A model generated the notes under the pieces. That model worked only from the letters and a program-made list of their open reading frames with translations. It was not told where the DNA came from and searched no databases. Shown here piece by piece: positions 1,487-21,126 of a stretch of DNA of 27,836 nt. How positions within the stretch are numbered: the first letter of the stretch is position 1; each line of letters opens with the position of its first letter. The position numbers were made by a program, and so were the translations under genes. The DNA is from Candidatus Kuenenbacteria bacterium (GTDB lineage Bacteria > Patescibacteriota > Patescibacteriia > UBA2591 > PGYQ01): the NCBI GenBank assembly GCA_016209005.1, contig JACQWZ010000109.1:1-27836 (forward strand). The letters run 5' to 3'.

Positions 1487-1647
1487 CAGGACTTACGCAG
1501 TTTAATCAAAAAATGGCTAAAGTTAGCGAAAATTGAATTTTTGTTAATTTTTCATTTTTAGCTAATATTAGCCAAATGCACATTAATAGTGATTTTTCAT
1601 TTTTAGCTAATATTAGCCAAATGCACATTAATAGTGCGTAACTCCTG
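1487..1647 (-). mobile_element. 116-bp MITE copy 1 (reverse orientation) carrying an internal 45-bp tandem duplication
   Basis: TIR CAGGACTTACGCA / TGCGTAACTCCTG and AAATT on both flanks. Bases 1547-1591 are repeated at 1592-1636. Confidence 0.93.
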
Positions 1648-1696
1648 AAATTAGAAATTTATAAAAATTTTCTCTTAGAAAATTTTTGCCTATTTT

Positions 1697-4312
1697 ATGT
1701 TTAAAAAAGAAAATAAAATATTAGATTTAAGCGGTGAGAGAAAAAAAAGAGAAAAAGAGGTGGAAGAAATAAGGAGAAAAATGAGTTTAAAAAAAGATTT
1801 ACCCCTCACCTTTTTCAGAAAAAAGGTGAGGGGTAAATCCCCCTTATCAGGGGGACTTATTGAGAAACAGCAATCGCAAAAATTATTATCAAAATTAGCG
1901 TTAACGATTTGCGATTCTTTTATTTCCGCGCCTATTTATTTTTTGGTTTTTTTGATCCCCTTATTTTTTCTTCCTTTTACATTTGAAATTTTTGAATTTA
2001 ATAAACAATATCTACTTTGGTCTTTGATAGCCATAACTTTAATGGCTTGGTTAATTAAAATAGCGATCATAAAAAAAGAGTTTGAATTTTTAAAAAATCC
2101 TTTAAATATTCCAATTTTGATCTTAATGATAATTTTTACTTTAGCCGCTTTTCTTGGCATAGATTCTCATTCTTCAATTTGGGGATCCTATGGTTGGTCT
2201 TCGGGAAATCTTTTGGAAATGTTAAGTTTTGGAATATTGTTTTTTATAATCATTAATAATGTTAAAAAAACAAATTTATCCATTAATCGTTTATTAAATG
2301 TTTTTTTAATCTCTGGATTTTTTGTTGTTTTAATAAGCTGTCTTTCAATTTTTGGTTTTCTTTCGAAATGGACATCTCAAATTCCACAGTTTAATTTTTT
2401 ACAAGGAATTAATTTATCTAATTTTAACACAGTCGGATCATGGGAGGCTTTAAGTATTTATTTGGCAGTAATTATTATTTTAATTTTAGGACAAAATCAA
2501 TTAACAAATAACAGACAACAAATAACAAATATTTTTTTAAAAACGGAAAAATTTTTAATCACTGTTGGTTGTTGGTTGTTGATTGTTGGTTGTTTAGGTT
2601 TATTAGTAATTATTCATTTTACATTAGCCTGGATTATTTTATTAATTGCCACGGGATTATTGTTGTTTTTTAAAATAAGCGAAGCAAGAAATGAAAATTT
2701 GTTTAAAATTTATTTAATTATTATAACTTTTACTTTTTCTATTGTTTCTCTTTTTTTCCCTTTGAATAAATTTATTAAAATAGATTTACAAAAAGAAATA
2801 AGGCTTGATAATAAAATAAGTTGGCAAATTACTGGAAATGTTATACAACATCGTCCAATTTTAGGCGTTGGTCCGAGCGCTTTTATTTATAATTTTTCTA
2901 AATATCATTCAAAAGAATTTAATCAAAATGAAAATTGGCAAATTCGTTTTGGAAAAAGCGGAAATTATATTTCAGAATTAATTAGCAGTATTGGGATTTT
3001 AGGAATATTAATTTATTTAATTTTAATTGGAATTTTTTTAAGTTTGATTTGCCGTTTGCCATTCATTATTTATTATTTTCCAGTATTTTTTCTTTTTCTT
3101 TCTCAATTTTTTTATCGTGAAAACACAGTTTTAAATTTTTGTTTTTGGTTTTTTCTTAGTCTTTCAATAGCTAATTGGAAAAAAATAAAACCGGAAATTT
3201 TTAAAACTCAAAGGTTCGGACATAAAATTTTAAAAAATATTCCAGAATTTTCTGTTATTTTAAATTCTATTTTGGTTTTAATATTTTGCGGTTTGCTTGG
3301 AGTAGGTTATTTTGCTGTTCAAAATTATAAAGCGGAGGCGTTGATAAAATATGGATTGAATTTAAAACAACAAACAGAAAATTATTCAAATCAAAAAATA
3401 GAACTTTTTAATCAGGTTTTAAATTTAAATCCTAAGCAAATATATTATCAAATAGGTTTAATTCAGGCTTATTTAGATAAAGCCCTAACCGAATTTCCAA
3501 ATTTAAAAGATCAGAAATTTTTTGAGAAATTAAAAGAGATAGTTAATTTGGGTATTAATCAAATAAAAAAAATTCAAGAAATGGCTCCGTTTGATGTAAA
3601 AACAGCGGAAATTCAGGGACAATTTTATCGAGATATTAAAATTATAACAAGCGGCGCAACCCCTTTATCAATAGAAGGATTTATGAAAGCGATAAAATTA
3701 GAGCCAAATAATCCTCTTTTGCGCGCAGAATTGGGAATGGCGTATATGGATTTAGCGGAAATAAATAAAGAAAAAGATTTAGAAAAAAAATCTGAAGAAT
3801 CCATTTTAAATGAAAAATCTTTTATAGAAAAAATAAAAAAAATGAAATCATCTGAATTGATTAAATTAGGACAAAAAGAATTCAATGAAGTATTAGAATT
3901 AAAAAATGATTTTTGGTTGGCTAAATATAAGTTGGCTCTTTCTTATGAAAAGCAAGGAGATGTTAAAAAAGCGATAGCTGATTTAGAAAAAATTGTCATA
4001 GATTTAAACAAAGAAAAAAAAGATGATCCAACACTCTTTTTTGATCTCGGGAGACTTTATTTTAATCAAGACAGAGTGGATGAAGCGATTAAAATATTTC
4101 AAATGGCTATTCAATTATCGCCTGATTATTCCAACGCTCTTTATGGTTTAGCGATAGCTTATGAAAAGAAAAATCTTTATGATCAAACATTGCAAACTTT
4201 CCAAAAACTTCAACAATTAAATCCAGGACATGGGGAAATAGAAAGGAAGATTATTGAGTTGAAACAAAAAAACAATAAAACACAAAAACACAAAAACACA
4301 AAAACAAATTAA
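1697..4312 (+). CDS. Polytopic membrane protein with O-antigen-ligase-like region and C-terminal TPR repeats
   Basis: About a dozen hydrophobic segments and an HRPILGVGPSAF motif like Wzy_C/O-antigen ligase. The C-terminus has TPR-like repeats (LGRLYFNQDRVDEAIKIFQMAIQLSPDYSNALYGLA). Confidence 0.8.
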   Translation: MFKKENKILDLSGERKKREKEVEEIRRKMSLKKDLPLTFFRKKVRGKSPLSGGLIEKQQSQKLLSKLALTICDSFISAPIYFLVFLIPLFFLPFTFEIFEFNKQYLLWSLIAITLMAWLIKIAIIKKEFEFLKNPLNIPILILMIIFTLAAFLGIDSHSSIWGSYGWSSGNLLEMLSFGILFFIIINNVKKTNLSINRLLNVFLISGFFVVLISCLSIFGFLSKWTSQIPQFNFLQGINLSNFNTVGSWEALSIYLAVIIILILGQNQLTNNRQQITNIFLKTEKFLITVGCWLLIVGCLGLLVIIHFTLAWIILLIATGLLLFFKISEARNENLFKIYLIIITFTFSIVSLFFPLNKFIKIDLQKEIRLDNKISWQITGNVIQHRPILGVGPSAFIYNFSKYHSKEFNQNENWQIRFGKSGNYISELISSIGILGILIYLILIGIFLSLICRLPFIIYYFPVFFLFLSQFFYRENTVLNFCFWFFLSLSIANWKKIKPEIFKTQRFGHKILKNIPEFSVILNSILVLIFCGLLGVGYFAVQNYKAEALIKYGLNLKQQTENYSNQKIELFNQVLNLNPKQIYYQIGLIQAYLDKALTEFPNLKDQKFFEKLKEIVNLGINQIKKIQEMAPFDVKTAEIQGQFYRDIKIITSGATPLSIEGFMKAIKLEPNNPLLRAELGMAYMDLAEINKEKDLEKKSEESILNEKSFIEKIKKMKSSELIKLGQKEFNEVLELKNDFWLAKYKLALSYEKQGDVKKAIADLEKIVIDLNKEKKDDPTLFFDLGRLYFNQDRVDEAIKIFQMAIQLSPDYSNALYGLAIAYEKKNLYDQTLQTFQKLQQLNPGHGEIERKIIELKQKNNKTQKHKNTKTN
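1796..1855. repeat. Double hairpin (20-bp perfect stem plus 6-bp stem) within the 5' part of the TPR membrane protein ORF
   Basis: GATTTACCCCTCACCTTTTT-caga-AAAAAGGTGAGGGGTAAATC is followed by TCCCCC-ttatca-GGGGGA, which is related to the REP at 8341-8376. Confidence 0.85.
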
Positions 4313-4598
4313 CCTAATTGATCTAATTTTAATCAAAAAAAATCAAAAATTAAAAATCAAAATGTAAAATGACAATGCAAAATTAAAAAATAAATTTAAG
4401 AAAAAATTATATGATAAAGTAAAAAATAATTTTAACATTTTAATTTGTCATTTTGATCTCTCGACTTCACTCGGGACAAGCTTTTGATATTTACATTTTA
4501 ATTTTATATTTATTAGTGTTTATTCGTGTTAATAGATTAGTGGTTGACTATTTCATTATTAATTCCTAAAAAGCTAAAAGCTAAAAGCTGCTAATTTT

Positions 4599-5753
4599 AT
4601 GTTAAATAAAAATATAAAAATTAAAGCATTAACCGGAGCGCAAGCGGTGGCTGAGGCAATGAGACAAATAAATCCAGGGGTGGTTTCTATTTATCCAATT
4701 ACTCCCCAAACGCCAATTATAGAAAATTTTAGCCAATTTGCGGTTAATGGACAAGTAGATTCAGAGATAGTCAGAGTAGAATCTGAACATTCGGCTTTAA
4801 GTCTGGCAATTGGAGCTCAGGCGAGCGGAGTGAGAGCGATGACCGCTAGTTCTTCGCAGGGCTTAGCTTTAATGTGGGAAATTCTTAGCGTAGCTAGCGG
4901 ATTGCGTTTGCCAATTATTATGCCAGTGGTTAATAGAGCTTTGTCAGCGCCGATTAATATTCATTGCGATCATTCAGATTCTATGGGTTGTCGAGATTTA
5001 GGTTGGATACAAATTTATTCGGAAAATAATCAAGAAGTTTACGAAAATATTTTATTGGCAATCAAAGTGGCCGAACAAGTAAAATTGCCAGCGATGATTA
5101 TGCAAGACGGATTTATTACTTCCCATTGCCTGGAAGCGGTCAAAATTTTTTCAGATAAAATTGTTCAAAAATTTTTAGGGGAATATAAATCAGAATATTC
5201 TCTTTTAGACACAAAAAATCCAATTAGTTTTGGGCCGACTGTTTCTCAGCCAAATTATTTTATTGCAAAGTGTCAGCAAATTCAAGCGATGGAACAAGCG
5301 AAAAAAGTTTATTTAAAAATTGGCAAAGAATTTTCAAAAATTACCAAACGAAAATATGAATATTTTGAAAAATATAAATTAGACGACGCTGAAGTTGGAA
5401 TTGTGGTCATGAGTTCTACGGCCGGAACAGTTAAAGCGGTTGTTAATCAGATACGAAAAAAAGGATTTAAAGTTGGATTGTTAAAACCGATTTTATTCAG
5501 ACCATTTCCTTATCAAGAAATAGCTCAAGCTCTATCTCATCTTAAAGTAGTGGCTGTTTTAGATCGTTCCGCCTCTTTCGGCGCATCCCCTCCGCTTTAC
5601 ACTGAAATTGTCAATTCTTTTTCAGTTAAAAGCTATCAGCTAAAAGCTATCAGCTATATATTCGGTTTAGGCGGGCAAGATATTTTTGAAAAAGACATTG
5701 AAAAAGTTTTTAAAGATTTATTGGCCGGGAAAATTGATGAAAAAAAAGATTAA
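4599..5753 (+). CDS. porA: Pyruvate:ferredoxin oxidoreductase alpha subunit
   Basis: Motifs YPITPQT, VESEHSALS, TASSSQGL, VNRALSAPINIHCDHSD, FRPFP and GLGG. Confidence 0.93.
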   Translation: MLNKNIKIKALTGAQAVAEAMRQINPGVVSIYPITPQTPIIENFSQFAVNGQVDSEIVRVESEHSALSLAIGAQASGVRAMTASSSQGLALMWEILSVASGLRLPIIMPVVNRALSAPINIHCDHSDSMGCRDLGWIQIYSENNQEVYENILLAIKVAEQVKLPAMIMQDGFITSHCLEAVKIFSDKIVQKFLGEYKSEYSLLDTKNPISFGPTVSQPNYFIAKCQQIQAMEQAKKVYLKIGKEFSKITKRKYEYFEKYKLDDAEVGIVVMSSTAGTVKAVVNQIRKKGFKVGLLKPILFRPFPYQEIAQALSHLKVVAVLDRSASFGASPPLYTEIVNSFSVKSYQLKAISYIFGLGGQDIFEKDIEKVFKDLLAGKIDEKKD

Positions 5754-5839
5754 GTATATTATGTAGTTATGAATATGGAATATGGAATATGAAATAATTC
5801 CCTAAAAGCTAAAAGCTAAAAGCTAAAAGCTAATTCAGG

Positions 5840-5926
5840 GCCGAAGTGGTGAAATTGGTAGACACGCGGGTCTCAAAAACCCGTGAGCGAAAGCTCATGT
5901 CGGTTCAAGTCCGACCTTCGGCACCA
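5840..5926 (+). tRNA. tRNA-Leu (anticodon CAA), class II long variable arm, encoded CCA
   Basis: Acceptor GCCGAAG/CTTCGGC, anticodon arm CGGGT-CTCAAAA-ACCCG, variable arm TGAGC-GAAA-GCTCA, T-loop GGTTCAAGTCC and terminal ACCA. Confidence 0.96.
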
Positions 5927-6130
5927 AATGATAAAATATAATTTTTGAATTTAATTTTGAATTTAGAATTTTGAATAAAATTCGAATGTTTAAATGTGGT
6001 GTTTGACTCTTCTCCGAAAAAGTACAGTGACTTTTAGTCAAAAAAAATTAAAATTTTATTTAAAATTAGAGAAATTTGTATGATAAAATAATAAAACTAT
6101 TGATTATTTATTTTAAATTACAAAGCTTTC

Positions 6131-6228
6131 AAATTTTCCCTTTCCTTAATGAGAGAAGTTTCCCAAATTCTCCCCCTCCCTTGATGGGAAGGGTTTCTCT
6201 AATTTTCCCCTCCCTTGATGGGAGGGGA
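6131..6228. repeat. Three tandem REP-like units (CCCCTCCCTTGATGGGAGGGG family), progressively degenerate
   Basis: Each unit starts with AAATT(C/T)(T/C)CCC. The last unit has the same core as the REP at 8283-8304. Confidence 0.8.
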
Positions 6229-6406
6229 GTATGAAAGTGTCAGGGGATGGAAAAATCTAATTTATTGGAAAATCCATTCTCTGACACTCTGAATTATTTT
6301 TTCTATATTCTTTTATTTTTCAAATAAATCCAGAAGAAACAATTCACTTCACTTTTTCCCTTCCCTCCGCCGTGTTAACATAGTAGTTTTTTCTTGAAAA
6401 ATTTTT

Positions 6407-6470
6407 AAAATAAGTTATGATTAACTTAAGAAATTTTAAAAATAAGTTATGATTAACTTAAGAAATTTTA
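6407..6470. repeat. Perfect 32-bp tandem duplication, each unit containing TAAGTTA-N4-TAACTTA
   Basis: AAAATAAGTTATGATTAACTTAAGAAATTTTA occurs twice. Confidence 0.9.
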
Positions 6471-6507
6471 AATTTTAAATTTTAAATTTTAAATAAAGTT
6501 TGAATTA

Positions 6508-6623
6508 CAGGAGTTACGCACTATTAATGTGCATTTGGCTAATATTAGCTAAAAATGAAAAATTAACAAAAATTCAATTTTCGCTAACTTTAGCCATTTT
6601 TTGATTAAACTGCGTAAGTCCTG
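6508..6623 (+). mobile_element. 116-bp MITE copy 2
   Basis: CAGGAGTTACGCA...TGCGTAAGTCCTG flanked by a direct AATTA repeat. Confidence 0.95.
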
Positions 6624-6746
6624 AATTATTTAATTTTTTAAACTTAAATTGTTTGAAAATTAATCCGCCACCAGCTGGCGGACTTAAATTTTGCTTATTT
6701 TGTAATTTATTTTTTTCTAAAAGCTAAAAGCTACAAGCTAATTTTT

Positions 6747-7736
6747 ATGAAACTATTAATAACTGGCGGAGCTGGGTTTATTGGGTCTAATTTTATACAT
6801 TATTGGATAAAAAAATATCCAGACGACAAAATTGTCAATTTGGATGTTTTAACTTACGCTGGAAATTTGGAAAATTTAAGAGATATTGAAAATAATTCTA
6901 ATTATAAATTTGTAAAAGGCGATATTTGCGATTCCGCATTAGTAAATGATTTAGTAAAAGACATTGATCTAATTGTTCATTTTGCCGCTGAAACACATGT
7001 TGATCGATCAATTATAAATAGCCAAGATTTTATTAGAACTAATGTGGAAGGCACGCGAATCTTGCTTGACGCGGCAAAAAATAACAATATTAGATTTCAT
7101 CATATTTCCACTGATGAAGTTTTTGGCTCGCTCGGTTTTAATAACAAACCATTTAATGAAAAAACTTCTTATGATCCTCGCAGTCCTTATAGCGCTTCAA
7201 AAGCAGCCGCGGATCATTTAGTTCGAGCTTATTATCATACTTATAAATTGTCAATTACTATTTCCAATTGTTCTAATAATTACGGGCCATACCAATTTCC
7301 AGAAAAAATTATCTCGCTTTTTATCACTAATTTAATAGAAAATAAAAAAATTCCAGTCTATGGGGAAGGCAAAAATGTTCGCGATTGGATTTATGTTGAT
7401 GATCACAATGCTGGAGTTGAAGCGATTATTAAAAAAGGTAAAATTGGCGAAACCTATTGTCTTGGTGGAAATAGTGAATTATCAAATTTAGAATTAACAA
7501 AAAAAATTTTAAAATTAATGGACAAAGGAGAGGAAATGATTGAATATGTTAAAGATAGGTTGGGACATGATTTGCGTTATGCAATAGATTTTTCTAAAGC
7601 TAAAAATGAATTAGGTTGGGAATCAAAAATGAATTTTAAAGATGGATTAAGAGAAACAATTGAATGGTACAAAAATAATCAAGAATGGTGGAAAAAAATA
7701 AAGAGTGGAGAATATTTAGAATATTATAAAAAATAA
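6747..7736 (+). CDS. rfbB: dTDP-glucose 4,6-dehydratase
   Basis: Motifs GGAGFIG, HFAAETHVDRSI, STDEVFG, YSASK, NCSNNYGPYQFPEK, RDWIYVDDH and GHDLRYA. Confidence 0.96.
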   Translation: MKLLITGGAGFIGSNFIHYWIKKYPDDKIVNLDVLTYAGNLENLRDIENNSNYKFVKGDICDSALVNDLVKDIDLIVHFAAETHVDRSIINSQDFIRTNVEGTRILLDAAKNNNIRFHHISTDEVFGSLGFNNKPFNEKTSYDPRSPYSASKAAADHLVRAYYHTYKLSITISNCSNNYGPYQFPEKIISLFITNLIENKKIPVYGEGKNVRDWIYVDDHNAGVEAIIKKGKIGETYCLGGNSELSNLELTKKILKLMDKGEEMIEYVKDRLGHDLRYAIDFSKAKNELGWESKMNFKDGLRETIEWYKNNQEWWKKIKSGEYLEYYKK

Positions 7737-9404: not shown

Positions 9405-10655
9405 TTAAATGTTTTTATAAACTTTTAGTGTTTCTTTGGCGCATTTTTCCCAAGAAAATTCTTTAGCTCTTTTAAATCCTTTTTCAATTAATTTAGTTCG
9501 TAAATTTACGTTGTTTAAAATTAATTCCAAGGCTTCGTTTATTTCTTGTTTTTTATGCGGATTAATTAAAATAGTTGATCCGGCTGTTATTTCTGGCAAA
9601 GATTCAATATTAGAAGTAATTACTGGTATTTTTTTTGCCATTGCTTCAATGACTGGCGTGCCAAATCCTTCATGAAACGATGGGAAAACAAACGTTTTTG
9701 CTTCGGAAAATAAACCGTTTAAATTCTCTGGACTAATATAACCCGTAAAAATAATTTCGTTTTTATAAGGAGAGCGCAAGGCTTTTTGATAAATTTTTTT
9801 AGCTTCCCATCCTTCTTTGCCGGCAATAACTAATTGGTATTTTATAGCGGAATTTTTTTGAAATAATTCAAACGCTTCAATCAATGTTTTAATATTTTTT
9901 CGCGGTTCAAGAGTGCCTAAAAATAAAATATAATTTTCTTTGATCTTATATTGGTTTTTAATTTTTTCTATTTCTAATTTTGGAAGTTCACTGAAGAGTT
10001 CTTTGTTGATTCCATTGTAAATCACTTCTATTTTATTCGCGGGAGTTTTAAATATTTTTATTAAGTCTTGTTTTATGCTTTGAGAAACAGCGATAATTTT
10101 TTTTGCCCTTTTTAAAGCATTAGGCGTTATCACTTTAACATTTAAAAATTGACCGGGCGGAAATAATTTTGGGAATTTATAAATACTTAAATCGTGAACA
10201 GTCACAATTGAGGGCTCATTATATGACAGGGGTAAATTTGGGGTGGGGGAATGCCAAATATTAAGATTTTCTCTTTTTAAAAAAGCGGAAGTTAAAAAAT
10301 GAGAATAAGCGATAGGTAAAAATTTTTTATATTGGCTAAAAGGAAAATATTTTATTTTTACCCAAGGTTTTGAAAATTTTGTTATATTTTTTTCAGCTAT
10401 TTCTTTGTCAAAAAATAAAACATACTCATTTTTTTCTTTATCCAGCATCTTTTCAGAATATCCCACAGTTTGCTGCGAAGATGAATGGATATTATATAAA
10501 TCTTTCTCACAGGATTTAATACCTTGTAGAAAGGCGCGGGATTTGTTTTCAAGACTAATCAAATGTTTTACCAATTGATAAGTATAGTGGGTTATTCCCA
10601 CCAAATCGTCTTTTTCCGGGTTTAAAATTGTTCGACAATCAATGCCTATCCTCAT
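9405..10655 (-). CDS. GT4 (group 1) glycosyltransferase with a ~35-aa internal insertion
   Basis: Motifs MRIGIDCR, TVHDL, VIYNG, FLGTLEPRKN and FVFPSFHEGFGTPVIEAMA (EX7E). Confidence 0.93.
   Translation of the reverse strand: MRIGIDCRTILNPEKDDLVGITHYTYQLVKHLISLENKSRAFLQGIKSCEKDLYNIHSSSQQTVGYSEKMLDKEKNEYVLFFDKEIAEKNITKFSKPWVKIKYFPFSQYKKFLPIAYSHFLTSAFLKRENLNIWHSPTPNLPLSYNEPSIVTVHDLSIYKFPKLFPPGQFLNVKVITPNALKRAKKIIAVSQSIKQDLIKIFKTPANKIEVIYNGINKELFSELPKLEIEKIKNQYKIKENYILFLGTLEPRKNIKTLIEAFELFQKNSAIKYQLVIAGKEGWEAKKIYQKALRSPYKNEIIFTGYISPENLNGLFSEAKTFVFPSFHEGFGTPVIEAMAKKIPVITSNIESLPEITAGSTILINPHKKQEINEALELILNNVNLRTKLIEKGFKRAKEFSWEKCAKETLKVYKNI
10437..10544 (-). repeat. In-frame coding repeat element, GT4 copy (KSRAFLQGIKSCEKDLYNIHSSSQQTVGYSEKMLDK)
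   Basis: Aligns without gaps to DnaE 23791-23868 (59/78 nt) and DnaE 25420-25527 (65/108 nt), counted by hand. Confidence 0.85.
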
Positions 10656-10773
10656 AAGAAAATAGCTTTTAGCTGTTAGCTTTTAGGGAAAAATAAAATA
10701 TGTTATACTAAGTGTAACATAGAACAATAAAAATACAAGAATAATAAATAGTTAAAATTTAAAAGTGCAAAGT

Positions 10774-10889
10774 CAGGAGTTACGCACTATTAATGTGCAT
10801 TTGGCTAATATTAGCTAAAAATGAAAAATTAACAAAAATTCAATTTTCGTTAACTTTAGCCATTTTTTGATTAAACTGCGTAAGTCCTG
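10774..10889 (+). mobile_element. 116-bp MITE copy 3
   Basis: Same TIRs, with direct AAAGT flanks. Confidence 0.95.
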
Positions 10890-11091
10890 AAAGTGTAAAG
10901 TCACAGTTTTGAGTTAAAAGTTTACCCATTCACTTTTTGATATTAATTAAAAAATATTTATTATTTTATTATTTTAAAATTATTTTCAGAAAATTTAAAA
11001 AGTGAGGGGTTTAATTTTGTCCGTCAGCTGGTGGATTTAACTTTGAATTTTTAACTTTAACTTTGAACTTTTAATTTTAAACTTTTAACTT

Positions 11092-11207
11092 CAGGAGTTA
11101 CGCACTATTAATGTGCATTTGGCTAATATTAGCTAAAAATGAAAAATTAACAAAAATTCAATTTTCGTTAACTTTAGCCATTTTTTGATTAAACTGCGTA
11201 AGTCCTG
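11092..11207 (+). mobile_element. 116-bp MITE copy 4
   Basis: Same TIRs, with direct AACTT flanks. It shares a TTCGTTAAC variant with copy 3. Confidence 0.95.
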
Positions 11208-11269
11208 AACTTATCTTTTATTCGCGTTAATAAATTAGTGGTTGATTTACTCATTATTAATTTTAATCT

Positions 11270-11764
11270 ATGGCTATTACTACAAACAAACACGCTTATC
11301 ATAATTATCAAATTTTAGAAACCTACGGAGTAGGAGTTGTTTTGACTGGACCAGAGGTTAAATCAATTAAAAAGGGGCAAATTAATCTTAAGGGAAGTTA
11401 TATTTCTTTGGATTTTAGAATTCCGGAAAAACCTTTCTCTAATGTTATTTCAAAATATTCTCTCCCCTTTGTGTGGCTAACTAATTGTCATATTTCACCA
11501 TATGCTCCAGCAGCTGGAGCACAACAAAATTATGAACCAACTCATTCCCGAAAACTTCTTTTGAAAAAGAAAGAAATTAAGTCTTTAATCGGTAAATTGA
11601 AAACCCCGGGCTTGACATTATTGCCAATAAAGGTATATACTAAGGGCAAGATAATTAAATTAGAAATTGCTTTATGCCGAGGAAAGAAAAAATACGACAA
11701 AAGAGAGGATATTAAAAAAAGAGAAGTAAAAAGAAAAATTGAAAGAGCCTTAAAAAATTTCTAA
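11270..11764 (+). CDS. smpB: SsrA-binding protein SmpB (with a ~14-aa insertion)
   Basis: Motifs NKHAYHNYQILETYGVGVVLTGPEVKSIK, HISPY, RKLLLKKKEI and RGKKKYDKRE. Confidence 0.96.
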   Translation: MAITTNKHAYHNYQILETYGVGVVLTGPEVKSIKKGQINLKGSYISLDFRIPEKPFSNVISKYSLPFVWLTNCHISPYAPAAGAQQNYEPTHSRKLLLKKKEIKSLIGKLKTPGLTLLPIKVYTKGKIIKLEIALCRGKKKYDKREDIKKREVKRKIERALKNF

Positions 11765-11831
11765 ACAATAGCTTAATGACAAAAATTTTAAACTTTTTTT
11801 GTCATTTTGATTTTTGGATTTAACATTTTTA

Positions 11832-12242
11832 ATGAATAATTTTAATAAACAAAAATTAAATAAAATTTTTAAAAAAAATCAAATTGTTTTAGTTTATCTT
11901 TTTGGTTCAGAGATAAAAGGAACTTCTCATAAAGAAAGCGATATTGATATTGGCGTTTTATTTGGGAAAAAAGTAATTTCTGAAGATTATTTAAAGTTAG
12001 AAGGAATGTTAATTGGAGTTTTTTCTGAAATTTTTCCTAAAAAAGAAATAAATATTGTTAATTTAAATCAATCCTCGCCTCTTTTAAAACAAACAGTAAT
12101 TTTAGAAGGGAAAGCGCTTTATATTAGAAGTGAAATTGAAAGAATTTTATTTCAAATTCAAACGCTTCATCAATATGAAGATTATTTGCACTTAGATAAT
12201 ATTTATAATCAATTTTTGAAATTAAAATTAAAAGCTATATGA
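11832..12242 (+). CDS. Minimal nucleotidyltransferase antitoxin (MntA-like, type VII TA)
   Basis: VYLFGS-X9-SDIDIGV Pol-beta NTase motif. ATG at 11832 is preferred to TTG at 11814. ATGA overlap with the HEPN gene. Confidence 0.88.
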   Translation: MNNFNKQKLNKIFKKNQIVLVYLFGSEIKGTSHKESDIDIGVLFGKKVISEDYLKLEGMLIGVFSEIFPKKEINIVNLNQSSPLLKQTVILEGKALYIRSEIERILFQIQTLHQYEDYLHLDNIYNQFLKLKLKAI

Positions 12243-12658
12243 CGAAAATAATTAAAAAACAGCTTCAAGAAAAAATAAATAATCTTCTTGAAATTTATCA
12301 AGGATTAAAACAGCTTCAAAGATTTAAATTAAATGATTTAAAAGAAAATATTGAAAATATTTGGGCAGTTACTTTCGGTTTGATAGCAGCAATCGAAGCA
12401 ACTTTGGATATTGCTCAATATATTTTAGCTGAAAAAGGAGTAAAAAGCGAAAGTTATGGCCAAATTCCTTTTAAATTATTTGAAGAGAAAATAATTAATC
12501 AAAAATTTAAAGAAGAAATGCAAAAAATGATTGGATTTAGAAATTGCGCTATTCATAATTATCCTTCTTTAGAAGAAGAACACCTTTACGAAATTTTACA
12601 AAAAGATGTTGAGGAATTTAAAAAGTTTTTAAAGATTGTGGTAAAGTTAAAAGTTTAA
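12239..12658 (+). CDS. HEPN/DUF86 RNase toxin (HepT-like)
   Basis: GFRNCAIHNY contains the RX4H HEPN motif followed by Tyr. The gene is coupled to the upstream MNT gene. Confidence 0.88.
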   Translation: MTKIIKKQLQEKINNLLEIYQGLKQLQRFKLNDLKENIENIWAVTFGLIAAIEATLDIAQYILAEKGVKSESYGQIPFKLFEEKIINQKFKEEMQKMIGFRNCAIHNYPSLEEEHLYEILQKDVEEFKKFLKIVVKLKV

Positions 12659-12830: not shown

Positions 12831-13548
12831 GTGATAAATACTGACATTACTCTACTAATGAAAGGGGTAAGAGAGATAATTGAAGGAGAAAAAAATAAAA
12901 ATTAAAAATTGGAATTTTATTAAAAATTAAAAATTAAAAATTTTCCTCACCTTTTGTTAGTTAATTTAAATTTGTTTTGGATTTATAATTTTGGTCATTG
13001 TGATTTATTTAGGATTTGGGATTTGGATATTGAAATTTACAAAATTTTCTTTTAGAAAATTTTGTTTTGGGGATGCTTATAATCGACGGAAAAGTTCTTT
13101 AAAAGTTAGCTATTTGTCTCGGCAAGACAAAAAATTAGCCAAACATAATAAATGCTAAATTTATTACACAGGTCAAAGAAAAAGTTCTTGCTTTTGTAAG
13201 ATCCTTTACTTTAACACCTGTTTCCGTTGTAGCTTAATTTTTTTTAATCTGCAACCATCCACCTATTGATGTCTAATAAATAGATCTGGATGTCATTTTT
13301 AGACTAGATAATTTTTTTCGTTTTAAATTAAATTATTGAAATTCATTAAGACTAGAATAAGCGACATTTGTTTATTTTTTTTGCTTATTTCGAAATTTAA
13401 AATAAACTATACTAGTAGAAGGCTTTTAAATATTTTTTCAGACAGGGGTGAAAATCCCCTCATCTCCACCAAAAAATAATTTAAGATTTAAGATTTAAGA
13501 TTTATAATTTTCTAAAAGCTAAAAGCTAAAAGCTAAAAGCTAATTAGT

Positions 13549-14565
13549 ATGAAATTTCCTCGTTCAAAAAAACTTATTTTTGTAAATAATAAAGGCGGGG
13601 TTGGCAAGACAACATTGGCTTTTAATTGTGCGGTTTCATTTGCTAAATAAGGATATAAAATAGCTCTCATTGATTTAGATCCACAGTGCAATCTTTCTCG
13701 CCTTGCTATAGGAGAAGAATATTATGCGAAAAATCTTTTTTCTGAAACAGAAAAAACAATATATGATGTTTTACGCGGAGTGATTGAAGGCGGTAGTGAT
13801 ATAAATTTTGCTATAAAATTTCTTCCAGTCAAAGCAGATCAAAACCTTTTTCTTCTTAAGGGAGATATAAATCTTTCAGTTTATGAGGGTTTGCTTTCAA
13901 CCGCTTATGGACAAGCTGCTTCTGGTCAGCCAATTGGATATTTTCAAACAAGCGCTATTGATCGTTTTTTAAGAGAAAAAGGATTAAGCGAGCAAATAGA
14001 TATTTTTATTATTGATACCTCGCCAAGTTTAGGACTTTTAAATCAAATGATTTTACTTGGGGCTGATTATTTTATTGTGCCAATGATGCCTGATGCTTTT
14101 AGTGTTCAAGGTATTGAAAATTTAGGGATTATGTATGAAAAATGGAAAATACAATGGCGAAACTCCGCCAAAGCTCTCGCGGGAAATATAGAAACAAAAT
14201 TTGTGCTTCAAGCAGATCCGCTTTTCACTGGATATATTGTTAATTTTTATAATGTTTATGGCAAACAACTAATCGCTGATCATCGCGCTTGGATGGAAAA
14301 AATTCCAGATAAAGTGCGGACATATTTATCTGAAAAACATTATCGCAATGGGCTTGTGCAGGAAAGCTGGAAAAAGCCATTAAATATTATTCAGGATTAC
14401 GGCAGAATTCCTTCTAAGTGCCAAGAACTTGGGGTTGCGATTTTTGATCTTAATCCAGCATTGATAGCCGATAACCAGCTTGGCACAAAAGAAAATATTG
14501 AAAAATCAAAAGAGGAATTTACCAATCTTTCAAATAATATTTTAAAAATTATTTCGGTATATTAA
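13549..14565 (+). pseudogene. ParA/MinD-family ATPase interrupted by an in-frame TAA at codon 34
   Basis: ATG 13549 encodes NNKGGVGKTT (deviant Walker A), followed by FAK*GYKIALIDLDPQCN (TAA at 13648-13650). This is the same frame as ORF 13780-14565, which carries IIDTSP. Confidence 0.9.
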
Positions 14566-14969: not shown

Positions 14970-15069
14970 TTTAAAATTTTTACTTATTTTACAATTATTT
15001 ATAAATTTGATATTCTTAAAATATAATTTTTTTATTTTTCTAAAAGCTAAAAGCTAAAAGCTAATTTTT

Positions 15070-15249
15070 ATGAAATCTCAAAAATCAATCACAAAACGTT
15101 TTAGCAAAACTAAAACAGGAAAAATTTTGCATCGCGCTTGCGGGCAAGATCATTTTAACTCGCGTGAAAAAGGTAAAACAACTCGTGGTAAACGTCGAGA
15201 TAAGGTATTATCTCCAGCCTTTCAAAAAGCCCTAAAAAAACTATTTTAA
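15070..15249 (+). CDS. rpmI: 50S ribosomal protein L35 (59 aa; absent from the ORF track)
   Basis: MKSQKSITKRFSKTKTGKILHRACGQDHFNSREKGKTTRGKRRDK matches the bL35 pattern KRF-X2-T-X2-GK...H. Confidence 0.88.
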   Translation: MKSQKSITKRFSKTKTGKILHRACGQDHFNSREKGKTTRGKRRDKVLSPAFQKALKKLF

Positions 15250-15445: not shown

Positions 15446-15991
15446 ATGAGAACTTATCGTAATAAATACGCCGCTTATAAAAGGCGCAAAAAATTTTATT
15501 ATAAAAATGAAAAAATATTTGCTCCGCAAGTTAGACTTATTGATGAACAAGGCCAATTTGTTGGAATTTTTCCAACCAGAGAAGCGCTTGCGATGGCGCG
15601 AGAAAGAGGATATGATTTGGTAGAAATTTCTCCCAAAGAAAATCCTCCAGTGGCGAAATTTTTAGATTTTGGGCAACTTCAATATGAAGAACAAAAAAAG
15701 AGACAAAAGCAAAAAATTAAATTAAAGACAGTGGAAACAAAAGGAATGAGATTAAGTTTTCGAATTAGTCAACATGATTTAGAGGTAAGATTAAATCAAG
15801 CAAAAAAATTTTTAAGCAAAAAACATAAAATAAAAATAGATATGAATTTAAGAGGAAGAGAGAAAAAGCACATAGATTTAGCTTTGGAGATTATGCAGAA
15901 ATTTATTGAGCAATTAGGCGAAAAGATTGTTATTGAACAACCAATTACAAGACTAGGCGGCAATTTATCCGTTTTAATAAAAGGAGAATAA
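15446..15991 (+). CDS. infC: Translation initiation factor IF-3
   Basis: Motifs NEKIFAPQVRLID, GYDLVEISP..NPPVAKFLDFG and LRGRE. Confidence 0.95.
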   Translation: MRTYRNKYAAYKRRKKFYYKNEKIFAPQVRLIDEQGQFVGIFPTREALAMARERGYDLVEISPKENPPVAKFLDFGQLQYEEQKKRQKQKIKLKTVETKGMRLSFRISQHDLEVRLNQAKKFLSKKHKIKIDMNLRGREKKHIDLALEIMQKFIEQLGEKIVIEQPITRLGGNLSVLIKGE

Positions 15992-15994
15992 TTT

Positions 15995-16828
15995 ATGCCA
16001 GAATTACCGGAGGTTGAAACAATTAAAATAGAATTAGAAAAAATTATAAAGGGTAAAAAAATAAAAAACATAGATATTAAATTGCCAAAAATTATCAATG
16101 TTCCACCCGCTCAATTTAAAAAAATTTTAATTGATTCAAATATAATCAATATTAAACGTCGAGCTAAAATTTTAATCTTTGAATTATCAAATGGATATAA
16201 TTTATTTATTCATTTAAAATTAACCGGTCAATTTTTTTATCAGTCAACAATTAACAAACAGCAACCAACAATAAAAAAAGGTCAGGTAATTTTTAATTTT
16301 ATTGATGGATCAAAACTTTTTTATAATGATTTTAGAAAATTTGGCTGGTTAAAATTAATGAATAATAAAGAAGCGGAAGAATTTTTAGAAAAGGAAAATT
16401 TTGGACCCGAACCCTTGAAGCAAGAATTTACTTTAACTGTTTTTAAAAAAATATTAGGAAAAAAGAAAAGAAGCAAGATAAAGCCTCTTTTGATGGATCA
16501 AAAATTTATTGCTGGAATTGGCAATATTTACGCGACAGAAATTTGTTTTTACGCTAAAATTAATCCATTGCGGATTATTTCAACTTTGCGAGAGAAAGAA
16601 ATTGATGAACTTTATAAAGGAATTAAAAAAATCCTATCAACAGCAATTAAGTTAAAAGGATCGTCAATAGACATCTATTTAGATATTTACGGACAACAAG
16701 GAAAATATATTTCTTTTTTGAAAGTTTACGATCGAGCGGGGGAGTTGTGTTTAAAATGTAAAACAAAAATTGAAGAAATTACACTTGCTGGACGCAACAC
16801 ATATTTTTGTCCCAAATGCCAAAATTAG
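15995..16828 (+). CDS. mutM: Formamidopyrimidine-DNA glycosylase (Fpg)
   Basis: MPELPEVET N-terminus, RRAK, HLKLTG, H2TH motif GIGNIYATE and C-terminal CLKC...CPKCQ zinc finger. Confidence 0.97.
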   Translation: MPELPEVETIKIELEKIIKGKKIKNIDIKLPKIINVPPAQFKKILIDSNIINIKRRAKILIFELSNGYNLFIHLKLTGQFFYQSTINKQQPTIKKGQVIFNFIDGSKLFYNDFRKFGWLKLMNNKEAEEFLEKENFGPEPLKQEFTLTVFKKILGKKKRSKIKPLLMDQKFIAGIGNIYATEICFYAKINPLRIISTLREKEIDELYKGIKKILSTAIKLKGSSIDIYLDIYGQQGKYISFLKVYDRAGELCLKCKTKIEEITLAGRNTYFCPKCQN

Positions 16829-16892
16829 CTTGGTAGCTTGTAGCTTGTAGGCAATCCTTAATTTCTAATTTGAAGAGCGTAGAACAATGTTT

Positions 16893-16980
16893 TTCTACCG
16901 CTTTTTAAAGCGGGTTGTGCGACTTTAGTCGCCAAGTTTACAGGCTAAAGCCTGTAAACCCGAACTAAAGTTCGGTAGAA
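16893..16980. repeat. Cluster of four REP-like hairpins with CTTTAG/CTAAAG-type cores
   Basis: CCGCTTTTTAAAGCGG, GCGACTTTAGTCGC, GTTTACAGGCTAAAGCCTGTAAAC and CCGAACTAAAGTTCGG, enclosed by outer TTCTACCG...CGGTAGAA. Confidence 0.85.
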
Positions 16981-17202
16981 ATGTTTATTCTTTTACAGTC
17001 TAAATTTTTAATTTCTTAATTTTTTTATTTTTATTTCTATAATATTTTTTTGACGATCGTCCAAAATGTACTATCGTTTTTTATTTTCTATCCCCCACCG
17101 TGTTAACACGGTGAATTTTAAATATTATAACTGCTCACAATCCACTCTTTTTTAATTTTTGACCTTTCTTATACTCCTCTATAAAAAACTTATCAAGCAA
17201 GA

Positions 17203-17430
17203 TCATAATAATTTTAAAAGTTCTCCTAAAGATAAATTGATTTTATTAAGAATATTTTTTAAAGTTCCCTTTCTTATTACTTTATGATTTGGAATAACTA
17301 TGGTTTCTTTTCCATAAATAGTCTTTTTTCTTAATTTAATATGACTTCCTCTTTGACTATAAATTTTAAAGCCTAATCTTGTTAAAATTTTTATTAATTC
17401 TTTTGCTGAAAAAACTGGTAATTTAGGCAT
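17203..17430 (-). CDS. hicA: HicA-family mRNA interferase toxin
   Basis: LGFKIYSQRGSHIKL...VIPNH...GTLKNIL dsRBD-like HicA pattern. Confidence 0.92.
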   Translation of the reverse strand: MPKLPVFSAKELIKILTRLGFKIYSQRGSHIKLRKKTIYGKETIVIPNHKVIRKGTLKNILNKINLSLGELLKLL

Positions 17431-17707
17431 ATTGTAATTTTTTTAATTTTTCTATTTCTATTGAAATAGGAACCATAAATTCTCTTTCAATAAAAAGGGG
17501 GATTTCTTCTTTTTCATCTTCTAAATATAATTTAATCGCCTCTTGTATATTTTTTATGGCTTCCTCAAAAGTATCTCCTTGAGAATAACAACCAGAAAGA
17601 GAAGGGACAGAAACACAAAATCCTCCATCTTTTTCTTTTTCAAAAACTGCATTAAAAATTAAAGATTTATTATTAGTTATAAATTTTTTGATTTTGTAGT
17701 TTTTCAT
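17423..17707 (-). CDS. hicB: Short HicB-family antitoxin, upstream of hicA
   Basis: EKDGGFCVSVPSLSGCYSQGDTFEEAIKNIQEAIKLYL HicB N-domain, with no obvious C-terminal HTH/RHH. Confidence 0.9.
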   Translation of the reverse strand: MKNYKIKKFITNNKSLIFNAVFEKEKDGGFCVSVPSLSGCYSQGDTFEEAIKNIQEAIKLYLEDEKEEIPLFIEREFMVPISIEIEKLKKLQYA

Positions 17708-17761
17708 AAAACATTCTATAAAATAAATTAAATTTTATTAATTTTTGACCTTTTTGATTGT

Positions 17762-17789
17762 ATTATATTCTTTTAAAAAATCTTGTCAA
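17762..17789 (-). promoter_or_regulatory. Sigma70-type promoter for hicB-hicA
   Basis: Minus strand TTGACA-N16-TATAAT, about 55 nt upstream of the hicB ATG. Confidence 0.75.
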
Positions 17790-17794
17790 ATTTT

Positions 17795-18919
17795 TTAATT
17801 TAATAAAATAATTATTTCAACGTGATCTTTTATTTTGGGCGTTCTTGTTGTCCAAAAAGGAGAAAATTTTATTTCTGCTTTTTGGATTTCATTAAATTGG
17901 CTGAAATATTCTTCAAGTTCCTTCTTTTTTAAACCAACCAGTTTATTTTTATTTAAAATTTCCGTTTTTGAATTTAAAGTCGCCATTCCTTCCAAATGAA
18001 CTTTAATTATCGCTTCTTTGGTTTGAGAATTATATTTTTCAATTGAATAAGTAAAATTTTGCAGAGGACTAATTAATTCTTGATTAGAAGAAATTTTTTC
18101 TAAAAGTTTAGACTTGGCAATTGCTAATAATTTTTCTTTATCAAAATTAATGCCGGTAATTTTTAATTTAATTCCTAAATTAAATTCATCTTTTTGTTCT
18201 TTTATTTCTGTGTCTTTTATTATTTCCACAATTTCAGAAACAAAAAGAGAGGGGATTGAATTATTTTTTTCATATTCAGACGATTCATCAATTCCTTTTT
18301 GAATTTTTTCTAAAACTTTTTCTTTTAATTTATTTGTCGCGCTTTCAATATATTTTTCCGTGATAATTTTATTTTTTTTAATCCCTCCAGTCATTGGTTC
18401 AAAACTTTGAGCGTAAATTTTATCTTGCGTTTGTTTTTGAAGGCCGGGAATAATAAAATAAACTCCTTTAGAAATTTCATTTTCTTTTCCGGGTTGATCG
18501 GCGTAAACTTCGGCTTCGGTTTTTCCATTAGCCGGAATAAACGCTCTTTCTTTGAGGCGATATAAAATATTATCCGGAGAGAGCAGGCGAGTGGTTACAA
18601 CAAGGCGGCGATTTTCTGATGTAAGATTAAAAATTGTTACTTTTCCAGTCGCTTGCGTTTTTATTTCTGAATTAGTTTCCTGAGCTGGAAAAGTATCTTG
18701 TTCCTCTTCAAAAGTTTCAGAAAAAGTAGATGAAATTATATTTGGATTTTGAGATTCAAAAGTTTCTTTCGCTAAAATAGTAAAATTCGTTTCAACTTTT
18801 TTAAAATTAGGAACAATGGAAATTATCGCTTTACTAAAAGAAAAATAGACAACAGTTAAAGCTAGAATTGTTGTGAAAATAATAAAAGTGAGACTTATTT
18901 TTTTAAGAAGAGAGTTCAT
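17795..18919 (-). CDS. Membrane-anchored hypothetical protein, possibly baseplate-J-like fold as often annotated in Parcubacteria
   Basis: N-terminal TM helix and the segment ATGKVTIFN...LVVTTRL...YRLKERAFIPA. The family call is from recall, not a search. Confidence 0.55.
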   Translation of the reverse strand: MNSLLKKISLTFIIFTTILALTVVYFSFSKAIISIVPNFKKVETNFTILAKETFESQNPNIISSTFSETFEEEQDTFPAQETNSEIKTQATGKVTIFNLTSENRRLVVTTRLLSPDNILYRLKERAFIPANGKTEAEVYADQPGKENEISKGVYFIIPGLQKQTQDKIYAQSFEPMTGGIKKNKIITEKYIESATNKLKEKVLEKIQKGIDESSEYEKNNSIPSLFVSEIVEIIKDTEIKEQKDEFNLGIKLKITGINFDKEKLLAIAKSKLLEKISSNQELISPLQNFTYSIEKYNSQTKEAIIKVHLEGMATLNSKTEILNKNKLVGLKKKELEEYFSQFNEIQKAEIKFSPFWTTRTPKIKDHVEIIILLN

Positions 18920-19061
18920 AAAAATGGAGGTTAGAGATTAGAAGTTGGAGGTTAGATGAGTAGAATGCAGAATTATTTAAATGATAAAAATGCAAAAATA
19001 TAAAAAAATAAAACCAAAACACAAAAACATTAAAACAAAAAAACAATAAAACAAAAAAACA

Positions 19062-19118
19062 ATAAAATATTGAAATTCCGATACTATAAAATATTGAAAT
19101 TCCGATACTATAAAATAT
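19062..19118. repeat. 24-bp tandem repeat (2.4 copies) at the truncation point of the AlkD remnant
   Basis: ATAAAATATTGAAATTCCGATACT occurs twice, followed by ATAAAATAT. Confidence 0.9.
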
Positions 19119-19269
19119 GATCTCTCCCGATTTCTTTGGCAAGTTTTCTTAAATTAGGAATAGAGACGTTAAAAGCTTTTTTAGGATTAATTCCAAATCG
19201 CGCCATTCCCTCAATATTTTTATGGCTGGATAATTTTTTAAGTTTCTTCAAAATATCATCAGATTGTAT
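19108..19269 (-). pseudogene. N-terminal remnant of a DNA alkylation repair (AlkD-like) protein
   Basis: (I)QSDDILKKLKKLSSHKNIEGMARFGINPKKAFNVSIPNLRKLAKEIGRDH followed by TAG. The rest of the domain is missing. Confidence 0.75.
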
Positions 19270-19308
19270 TTTTATAGTTTTTTTATTTATTTTACACCTA
19301 ACCATTTT

Positions 19309-19337
19309 GTAGAGACGTTTTGACAAAACGTCTCTAC
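19309..19337. repeat. GTAG-type REP hairpin that supplies the stop codon of the peptidase gene
   Basis: GTAGAGACGTTTT-gac-AAAACGTCTCTAC, a 13-bp perfect stem overlapping the TAG at 19334-19336. Confidence 0.85.
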
Positions 19338-19957
19338 GACAAAATCACTTCCTTTCCATCACCACAAAAAATATTTTTATCATTTTCAACCAATATCCCT
19401 TGCCCATCACGTAAAACACGAAGCGGGAATTTTAAATTTTTCATTTTCTCTTTCACTTCTATTTCTTGCTCGTCTGTGTAGTGAACTTTCAAGACAAAAG
19501 AAACATAATTAAGCGCGGAAAAATCAGTAACGCTCCACCTGTCTGTTGTTTTATCTTTCCAATTAGATACTTCAATCGTTGGGCGCATAATATACGCTCC
19601 AGCGCTTACACCAATATAAATTTTCCCCTCACTTAATAACTCTTTTAGAATTTTATCAAATCCTGTTTCCTTTATTGCTTTAAGTAAATAAAAAGTATTG
19701 CCTCCTTCAATATAAATTATGTTTTTATCTTTAAAAAAGTTTTTTAATTCTTCTTTATTTTTTTCTTCAATATCTATTTCATCAATAGGATATCCTTCGC
19801 CTCGAATAGTGGATTTCAATTTTTGATTAAAATCAGTTTTTGTTCCTTTTAACGCAGTTGTAATATAACCAATTTTCATTTGATCTTTTGGAATGCCAGT
19901 TAAATTATAACCATATTTCAAAAGAAAACTTAAATCTGAAGCAAGAATGAGTTTTAT
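19334..19957 (-). CDS. Peptidase S51 (dipeptidase E-like, class I GATase fold)
   Basis: Motifs IYIEGGNTFYLL, YIGVSAGA (nucleophile Ser) and VHY. The frame extends to ATA-AAA-CTC-ATT-CTT-GCT-TCA (xKLILAS) at 19957, with an upstream TAA at 19966. Confidence 0.85.
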   Translation of the reverse strand: MKLILASDLSFLLKYGYNLTGIPKDQMKIGYITTALKGTKTDFNQKLKSTIRGEGYPIDEIDIEEKNKEELKNFFKDKNIIYIEGGNTFYLLKAIKETGFDKILKELLSEGKIYIGVSAGAYIMRPTIEVSNWKDKTTDRWSVTDFSALNYVSFVLKVHYTDEQEIEVKEKMKNLKFPLRVLRDGQGILVENDKNIFCGDGKEVILS

Positions 19958-19970
19958 ATATTTTTAATAA

Positions 19971-21126
19971 TTATTTTTTCTTTTTAGAATTTAATAATTT
20001 TTTTACTTCCCGATCAAAGTCGGATTCAAACATGTGGTCTTGAATAACCCGGTATTTTTCAAATTCGCTTTCGGCTAATGCTATTGCCACTTTATGACTA
20101 ATTTGACCGCTATCCTGCAATATCAGGAGTTACGCATTATTAATGTGCATTTGGCTAATATTAGCTAAAAATGAAAAATTAACAAAAATTCAATTTTCGC
20201 TAACTTTAGCCATTTTTTGATTAAACTGCGTAAGTCCTGAATATTGCATTTTCGCTAAATTGTAAAAAACTATCTAATTTTTCTACCCAATCTTTCATAT
20301 ACATTATTTTGCCTTTACGCGCCTGACTTTCTGCAAAAACCAAATACATTTCCACAATTCTATTTAATTCGTCCATCTCATACTTATTCAAATAATTTTT
20401 GGCAATCACTGCATCAGTTTTTCTAATTGCTCCCTTAGGTGAGTTTTTCCAATTCGTAAGTCCCATATTTTGTTTTTCGCTGTTTACCCTGTTATGAATA
20501 ATTTCCGCTGTGGTTTGGTTAGTTATTGCCCAGTGAAGTTTGTTTTGTACGGTAGCAAAAAATTGTTTGGTAATTTTTTCATTTGGGTTATAATCAGCGC
20601 TACACTGTGCGTAAATGTCGGTAATTTTTTGATAGAATCTACGCTCGCTGGAACGAATATCGCGAATACGCGCCAGTTGTTCTTCAAAATAATCTTTACC
20701 AAAAATAGTATTTGGATTTTTCAGCCGTTCATCATCCATAGCAAAGCCTTTGATGATATATTCTTTCAAAATCTGTGTTGCCCAAATGCGAAATCGTGTG
20801 GCTTGAGAACTATTTACTCGATAACCAACTGAGAGAATCGCATCAAGATTATAAAACTTTGTGTTATATTTTTTCCCATCATCGGCAGTTAGTTCCAAAA
20901 TGGAACTAACTGAATTTTCATGCAATTCTCCACTTTCAAAAATATTTTTAAGATGTTTAGTAATAGCTGGTCTTTGCACACCAAACAAAAGAGCTATTTT
21001 GTCTTGTGTAAGCCAAATATTTTCATCACGCAAAAATATCTCCACTTTCACCTTGCCGTTTGGCGTGGTATAGAATAGAAATTCTGTAAATATGTTCTGT
21101 TTTTCAATCTGTTTATTCTTTTTCAT
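19971..21126 (-). pseudogene. RhuM-family (virulence RhuM-like) protein disrupted by MITE copy 5
   Basis: Motifs WLTQDKIALLF, YRVNSSQATRFRIWAT and RDIRSSERRFYQKITDIYA. Removing 121 bp restores ...FSENAILQDSGQISHKVAIALAESEFEKYRVIQDHMFESDFDREVKK (344 aa). Confidence 0.9.
20124..20239 (+). mobile_element. 116-bp MITE copy 5, inserted in rhuM
   Basis: Same TIRs, with direct AATAT flanks. Confidence 0.96.

Follow-up and report, generated by a model that had tools for sequence, protein, structure and literature searches.

A recently amplified miniature inverted-repeat element in a Candidatus Kuenenbacteria genome and its probable partner, an ISAba11-group insertion sequence

A repeated element in the window

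The DNA considered here (the window) is contig JACQWZ010000109.1 at its full length of 27,836 nucleotides, from assembly GCA_016209005.1 of a Candidatus Kuenenbacteria bacterium. Its genes are mostly of the ordinary sort: Pfam matches mark arginyl-tRNA synthetase (ArgRS), a PFOR subunit, SmpB, IF-3, Fpg and DnaE amongst the housekeeping functions and MNT/HepT, HicB and AbiEii of the toxin-antitoxin kind, and a tRNA-Leu is the sole match in an Rfam scan. Set amongst these genes is a short repeat, present five times, that has the form of a MITE, or miniature inverted-repeat transposable element. I argue below that it is one, that it has recently amplified throughout its genome, and that it is probably moved by the transposase of an insertion sequence (IS) resident in that genome.

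The window is contig C91 of a metagenome-assembled genome (MAG; G000) of 809,891 bp in 131 contigs, with 29% GC, a completeness of 92% as judged by marker genes, and an estimated contamination of 0.38%. Among its relatives in the order, genome sizes are 0.5-1.4 Mb, and the sequence is present in no runs other than four groundwater metagenomes, all from one study. The size of the genome and those of its relatives, the groundwater source and the best protein matches point to an organism of the candidate phyla radiation (CPR)/Patescibacteria type.

A repeat search, together with an alignment of the five copies and their flanks, found the copies exactly where an earlier reading of the sequence by itself (the sequence-only reading) had placed them (Table 1). 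Four are 116 bp long and differ amongst themselves at one or two positions, with ends CAGGAGTTACGCA and TGCGTAAGTCCTG that pair as terminal inverted repeats (TIRs) apart from a single mismatch (G/C, position 6); for these four copies the earlier description of near-identity and of TIRs with one mismatch was accurate. The remaining copy, which lies inverted, is 161 bp long owing to an internal tandem duplication of 45 bp (positions 12-56 of the element), which lies at about 1547-1636. All five copies are bounded by the 5-bp target-site duplications (TSDs) that had been described, exact on both sides in each case. Nor did a Pfam scan of the window's open reading frames (ORFs) give any match to a transposase, as that reading also had it.

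Table 1. Coordinates of the MITE copies, the interrupted genes and other features. Unless a contig is named, positions are those of the window.
Feature	Location	Strand	Remarks
MITE copy 1	1487..1647	-	161 bp; TSD AAATT at 1482-1486 and 1648-1652; 50 nt upstream of ORF 1697-4312
MITE copy 2	6508..6623	+	116 bp, same sequence as the consensus of the genome; intergenic; epimerase/dehydratase gene (6747-7736) starts 124 nt downstream; TSD AATTA at 6503-6507 and 6624-6628
MITE copy 3	10774..10889	+	116 bp; intergenic, 5' of glycosyltransferase gene 9405-10655 (-); TSD AAAGT at 10769-10773 and 10890-10894
MITE copy 4	11092..11207	+	116 bp; TSD AACTT at 11087-11091 and 11208-11212; within an (AACTTTN)n tract; smpB (11270-11764) begins 63 nt downstream
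MITE copy 5	20124..20239	+	116 bp; TSD AATAT at 20119-20123 and 20240-20244; interrupts RhuM-family gene
RhuM-family gene, N-terminal 294 codons	20245..21126	-	Pfam PF13310, profile positions 4-219
RhuM-family gene, orphaned C-terminal 50 codons	19974..20123	-	Pfam PF13310, profile positions 221-248
Interrupted Cys-rich paralogs (G000)	C26:2122-3961; C113:7240-8998; C22:3188-4745; C25:4631-5960
IS contig ends, examples (G000)	C31:7530-7736; C36:3444-3717; C83:1-138		loci L038-L040
IS in Logan contigs, examples	L041-L043
Heptamer tracts	4559-4600; 5794-5835; 6702-6752; 13504-13554; 15029-15075
Heptamer tracts, further	4244-4321; 18983-19100; 26420-26576
Toxin-antitoxin-type pairs	11814-12658; 17203-17707; 21113-22463
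Second repeat, about 105 nt	10436-10545; 23793-23869; 25465-25525		first inside glycosyltransferase gene, the other two inside dnaE; families D7 and D11

Amplification across the genome

If the density of copies in the window were representative, then many should be present elsewhere, and this expectation of the sequence-only reading was borne out when they were counted. BLASTN against the assembly found 128 full-length copies at 97% identity or better, plus about 20 partial pieces or pieces at contig ends. Full copies thus occur at a density of 158 per Mb and the MITE makes up 1.83% of the assembly. Of the 125 copies with exactly the standard length, 63 match the consensus throughout, sub-lineages can be told apart by four common variant positions, and the mean pairwise divergence is 1.3%. 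With divergence so low and half the copies being the consensus itself, the amplification is taken to be recent, which agrees with the recent activity that had been claimed.

The copies have the anatomy expected of a MITE. The element has no ORF and is non-coding, its 13-bp TIRs, CAGGA(G/C)TTACGCA with one mismatch, are conserved across the 125 copies, and nearly the whole of it is an imperfect palindrome, for which folding predicts one long hairpin (-38 kcal/mol, z about -7). The flanking 5-mers, which might have matched only in the window, match perfectly at 108 of the 128 full copies. Most of the other 20 lie at a contig end, adjoin another copy, or have a single mismatch in the TSD. That there should be 128 copies, 108 with perfect TSDs, is far beyond chance. 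Taken as a whole, the explanation that this is a real and recently amplified MITE, moved in trans by the transposase of a partner of the ISAba11 group as set out below, is very probably correct.

In a few cases MITE copies share a flank on one side. Within G000, C59:9435-9550 does so with C92:6687-6802, and C39:848-963 with C80:2798-2913; the same flank found at the copies in C39 and C80 also follows the right end of an IS in a Logan contig (L041:1393-1458). Such sharing suggests recombination between elements, duplicated loci, or cross-overs in the assembly graph.

Genes interrupted by the element

Then there is the evidence of the genes into which the element has inserted. Copy 5 splits a gene of the RhuM family. 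The ORF as called (20221-21126) extends 19 nt into the MITE and ends there, leaving the last codons of the gene orphaned on the other side. When the element and one copy of the TSD are removed in silico, the C-terminal piece returns to frame and the restored ORF is 344 amino acids (aa) long. There exists an intact homolog of that same length, 344 aa (P0017, 87% identical), to which the two pieces align at residues 1-292 and from 295 onward, and the junction is exact: the pieces abut at residues 294|295.

The same excision, with a cut-off of at least 100 aa for the restored ORF, repairs an ORF at 20 sites in the genome. Four of the broken genes are paralogs in a Cys-rich family of roughly 400-570 aa, with an N-terminal CQNCQ..F.I...D..FY and many CxxC motifs. 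Each of the four is interrupted at a different place, and two of them align without gaps across their break points. Since excision restores the genes, the boundaries of the element and the length of the duplication are fixed independently of the alignment of the repeats.

These junctions bear on the view that the copies are artefacts, either a repeat pasted into contigs during assembly or contigs of several organisms binned together. A MAG in 131 contigs invites the suspicion, all the more when 32 of its 262 contig ends stop inside one or other element (17 inside the IS, 15 inside the MITE). It is too much to expect of an artefact, however, that it should yield 128 copies with unique flanks and exact TSDs and should split genes precisely at the element's boundaries. 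Moreover, L050, an independent contig from the Logan assemblies, joins the peptidase gene to the first 29 or so nt of copy 5, as judged by coordinates, although it comes from a run of the same study and may be from a source sample. The region is held by four runs, and the estimated contamination is just 0.38%. I regard an artefact as scarcely credible.

Choice of target

The five duplications in the window had been read as a preference for AA-N-N-W. The larger sample corrects this to A-A-W-T-T: 55 of 106 TSDs are AAATT or AATTT, two sequences that together account for 2.3% of genomic 5-mers.

The preference extends beyond the 5-mer. MITE insertions are flanked by phased runs of A and T, and self-match at a period of 7 is 0.52 around insertion sites, as against 0.35 at background AAWTT sites. 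Strong tandem tracts of period 7 or 8 are found at 20% of the AAWTT-type insertion sites and 1.8% of the background. The MITE favours those members of the heptamer-tract class that contain AAATT.

Tandem heptamer tracts are frequent between the genes of the window, (AAAAGCT)n, (AAAACAC)n and (AATTAAC)n being examples; several of these tracts stop immediately upstream of a gene (Table 1).

Whereas 64% of background AAWTT sites lie within ORFs of 100 aa or more, just 16% of copies interrupt one. This depletion could come from the target preference, from purifying selection, or from both. No clear bias was seen between gene starts and gene ends (57 versus 50 copies within 150 nt).

A probable partner insertion sequence

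Because the window has no transposase, the sequence-only reading had supposed that the MITE is mobilised in trans. A source was sought by looking in the assembly, outside the MITE copies, for the terminal 13-mer. The search turned up 17 contig ends, of which eight are left ends and nine right ends. All start with CAGGACTTACGCACATT and then follow one of two sequences, each breaking off about 115-275 nt into the element. There are at least nine copies of this IS, all of them broken at contig ends. The sequences of the left and right ends have some 52 nt in common at 85% identity, which amounts to a long imperfect TIR, and at least eight left ends show no difference over 120-138 nt.

At the right end lies the coding sequence for a protein's C-terminus, and a protein search found a 100%-identical protein of 289 aa in Logan assemblies of the same study. 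The left terminus is the exact first position of one Logan contig (L042, 1210 nt), which breaks off 20 nt before the right terminus; another (L041) supplies the last 20 nt. Together they give an IS of 1230 bp, with a single ORF of 351 codons, stop to stop. Its termini are CAGGACTTACGCA, the same ends as those of the MITE, so that the full-length IS whose existence the sequence-only reading had thought worth checking for does exist in this genome.

To what family does it belong? That reading had ventured no answer. The ORF scores 297.5 bits (cut-off 250) against the NCBIfam profile NF049921 (transpos_IS701_2, IS701 family), over positions 2-317 of 318. It also matches Pfam DDE_Tnp_1, DDE_5 and DDE_Tnp_2, and NF033540 weakly. 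In an alignment with ISAba11 and four other homologs, D73, D161 and E263 are invariant. A match on a plasmid, about 30% identical over 89% of the length, is annotated "IS701-like element ISAba11 family transposase", and the closest transposases in the genome collection, 42-44% identical, come from MAGs of Parcubacteria and Moraniibacteriota.

The termini tell the same story. ISAba11, 1101 bp long, has the ends TAGGACTTACGCA and TGCGTAAGTCCTA and stands between two copies of the 5-bp repeat CATAT, a repeat of that length being reported as characteristic of the element (PMC7885321). Related loci, 80 in all, were compared across a diverse range of Bacteria and Archaea: at 69 of them ends of the TAGGACTTACGC type lie 1040-1150 bp apart (one locus, 1681 bp), and 30 of these 69 have exact 5-bp TSDs, several others having TSDs of 6 bp. 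The characteristic termini (T/C)AGGACTTACGC are thus common to ISAba11, to the 69 loci and to the partner IS. Judged by profile, catalytic residues and ends, the partner IS is a member of the IS701 family, in its ISAba11 group.

The start of the transposase gene is peculiar. Where homologs have ATG it has ATA (IS positions about 57-77, L042:57-77), 6 nt after a Shine-Dalgarno-like run, GGGGGTGA, a spacing like that in the homologs. An in-frame TGA lies just upstream, and the first ATG is codon 62. Every left end seen has ATA, so it was apparently in this form that the IS spread. Initiation at ATA would presumably be weak, and a weak non-canonical start may serve to keep levels of transposase low.

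Distribution amongst relatives

A search of 40 relatives gave nothing beyond weak partial matches to the MITE. One congener (G004) does have a few copies of about 117 bp with the same ends and roughly 80% identity, and in one of these the TSD has decayed. Exact scans of public collections of genome and metagenome contigs found no match to the MITE's 28-mer core outside its own genome. As for the transposase, the 54 relatives of the same order that were considered have just a degraded copy in a congener (G002) and a distant relative, 32% identical, in G014. Set beside the 128 copies here, the diverged relatives in G004 indicate that the MITE family predates the species and that the burst is specific to it.

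How the element may move

Both arms of the MITE are identical to the ends of the IS over 13-14 nt and resemble its left end patchily over about 40 nt. This fits an origin of the MITE from the ends of the IS, followed by divergence.

I propose that the MITE is moved by the DDE transposase supplied in trans by the 1230-bp IS of the same genome. The transposase would bind the ends that MITE and IS have in common and integrate the element through staggered cuts 5 bp apart, preferably at AAWTT inside phased A/T tandem tracts of period 7. Repair of the gaps would then produce the 5-bp duplication. In the window's species, a recent burst of such events would have led to at least 128 copies. Copies may have increased in number either by a replicative mode or by cut-and-paste with repair, and activity may well continue today.

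Several observations weigh against this proposal. The similarity between MITE and IS is patchy beyond the terminal 13-14 bp, and at position 6 of the left end, 111 of 125 MITE copies have G and the IS has C (related ISs use either base). The interior of the IS is absent from the MAG and was taken from Logan assemblies belonging to the same study. Both ends of the IS are never found together on one contig, and so a 5-bp TSD for the IS itself is only consistent with the data: for five of the eight left ends there is a right end flanked by the same 5-mer, those 5-mers being common targets, and no ORF was restored by joining left and right contig ends in this way. The transposase ORF lacks the ATG of its homologs. 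Finally, neither an empty-site allele nor an insertion polymorphism was observed. Logan contigs that cover smpB or the S51 peptidase gene break off at the MITEs or a few nucleotides into them; the protein collection offered no intact RhuM allele at 100% identity, only intact homologs at 87%; and in the congener G002 the orthologous spacer, which separates the glycosyltransferase gene from smpB, is MITE-free and about 270 nt shorter, but too diverged to define empty sites.

Some of these observations would suit the idea that a different transposase, unassembled, mobilises the MITE, the 13 bp in common with the 1230-bp IS being a resemblance at the level of the family. A fragmented MAG that is 92% complete could well be missing other types of IS, and the identity between MITE and IS is exact over just 13-14 bp. 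However, no sequences in the assembly other than the ends of this IS carry the termini of the MITE, the same target 5-mers flank the ends of the IS, and the ISAba11 clade as a whole keeps the terminus and the 5-bp TSD together. The idea has a slim chance of being right.

A more serious alternative is that MITE and IS are both dead by now, and that the copies are nearly identical owing to a burst already finished or to homogenisation by gene conversion. The transposase without a canonical start, ATA standing at the position of the homologs' ATG, speaks for this, as do the 1-nt deletion near the 3' end of the transposase gene in one IS copy (C36) and the lack of polymorphic empty sites in the Logan contigs, which end at MITEs, and in the protein collection. 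But a dead IS would hardly be expected to have at least eight left ends identical over 120-138 nt and an ORF open for 351 codons with its DDE residues intact. ATA is an accepted weak start (table 11), here behind a strong Shine-Dalgarno-like run at the homologs' spacing, the interrupted genes show no secondary lesions, and gene conversion would not create exact TSDs. I consider death of both elements unlikely, and trans-mobilisation by the partner IS remains the reading that I prefer.

Other features of the window

Three pairs of the toxin-antitoxin type lie within these 28 kb (Table 1): MNT/HepT, a HicB-like antitoxin with a small ORF upstream, and AbiEii with an adjoining unannotated ORF. 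AbiEii adjoins the RhuM-family gene broken by the MITE.

A second and unrelated repeat, of about 105 nt, occurs inside the glycosyltransferase gene and twice inside dnaE. The glycosyltransferase ortholog in G002 is without about 108 nt (36 codons) exactly at this repeat, which fits an in-frame insertion into the gene in the window's species.

Significance and relation to known elements

The kind of element is ordinary. What is noteworthy is its density, the breakage of genes within a tiny genome, and the preference for AAWTT in heptamer tracts. One may tentatively go further and suppose that three things hold jointly: that this is the first documented active IS/MITE pair in an ultra-small genome of the CPR/Patescibacteria type, that it represents the densest burst of a single MITE family in a bacterium (158 per Mb), and that the shape of DNA steers integration into phased A/T tracts of period 7, often just upstream of genes. 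The combination is possible but doubtful. If it is true, then a burst has been rewiring expression and turning accessory genes into pseudogenes in a lineage usually deemed streamlined and poor in mobile elements.

A genome of 0.8 Mb can evidently bear a heavy load of recent transposons: at least 128 copies of the MITE and at least 9 of the IS, over 3% of its DNA. At least 20 ORFs are interrupted, including the RhuM-family gene and the four Cys-rich paralogs, and the repeats of MITE and IS are a partial cause of the fragmentation of the MAG (32 of 262 contig ends). With defined ends, a 5-bp TSD, a target in AAWTT within heptamers and a partner transposase, the system is suited to the study of target choice by transposases of the ISAba11 type, a group that matters for antibiotic resistance in Acinetobacter. 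The MITE could also serve as a marker of strains in groundwater time series.

No relevant paper on MITEs in CPR/Patescibacteria, and no MITE derived from the ISAba11 group, came to light in the literature searched. In a census of 183,232 genomes (PMC11602168), the highest values reported for bacteria are 123 MITEs per Mb and a genome share of 1.23%; a DPANN archaeon reaches 146 per Mb. The 158 copies per Mb and 1.83% reached here by one family exceed those bacterial maxima, a comparison that is indicative only, because the census used a different method of detection.

The closest known system to the partner IS is ISAba11 itself (IS701 family, Acinetobacter), with its relatives of about 1.04-1.15 kb. 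The termini are alike, TAGGACTTACGCA in ISAba11 and CAGGACTTACGCA here. Each IS encodes one DDE transposase, about 330-350 aa in length. ISAba11 makes a TSD of 5 bp in AT-rich targets, as the MITE does here. The partner IS differs in being longer (1230 bp), in starting with C rather than T, in having ATA at the start position, and in a protein identity of about 30%. IS701 proper, listed from ISfinder at 1400-1550 bp with direct repeats of 4 bp (PMC6352166, Table 2), is alike in the homology of the DDE transposase; the partner IS is shorter and the TSD of the MITE is 5 bp, as in the ISAba11 group.

A MITE of the Correia or IS630-Tc1 type was ruled out, because TSDs of the dinucleotide TA would be expected and 5-bp AAWTT was found. 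In general form, nonetheless, the MITE resembles Correia (Neisseria), ERIC, Nezha, Chunjie, MITEAba12 and the Cardinium MITE, which are likewise short and non-coding with TIRs, a TSD and a long hairpin. Like the classical prokaryotic MITEs, it is mostly intergenic, in the range of tens to hundreds of copies, and by the present proposal dependent on the transposase of an IS (review, PMC10969869), and it differs from them in parent family, termini, length of TSD and host.

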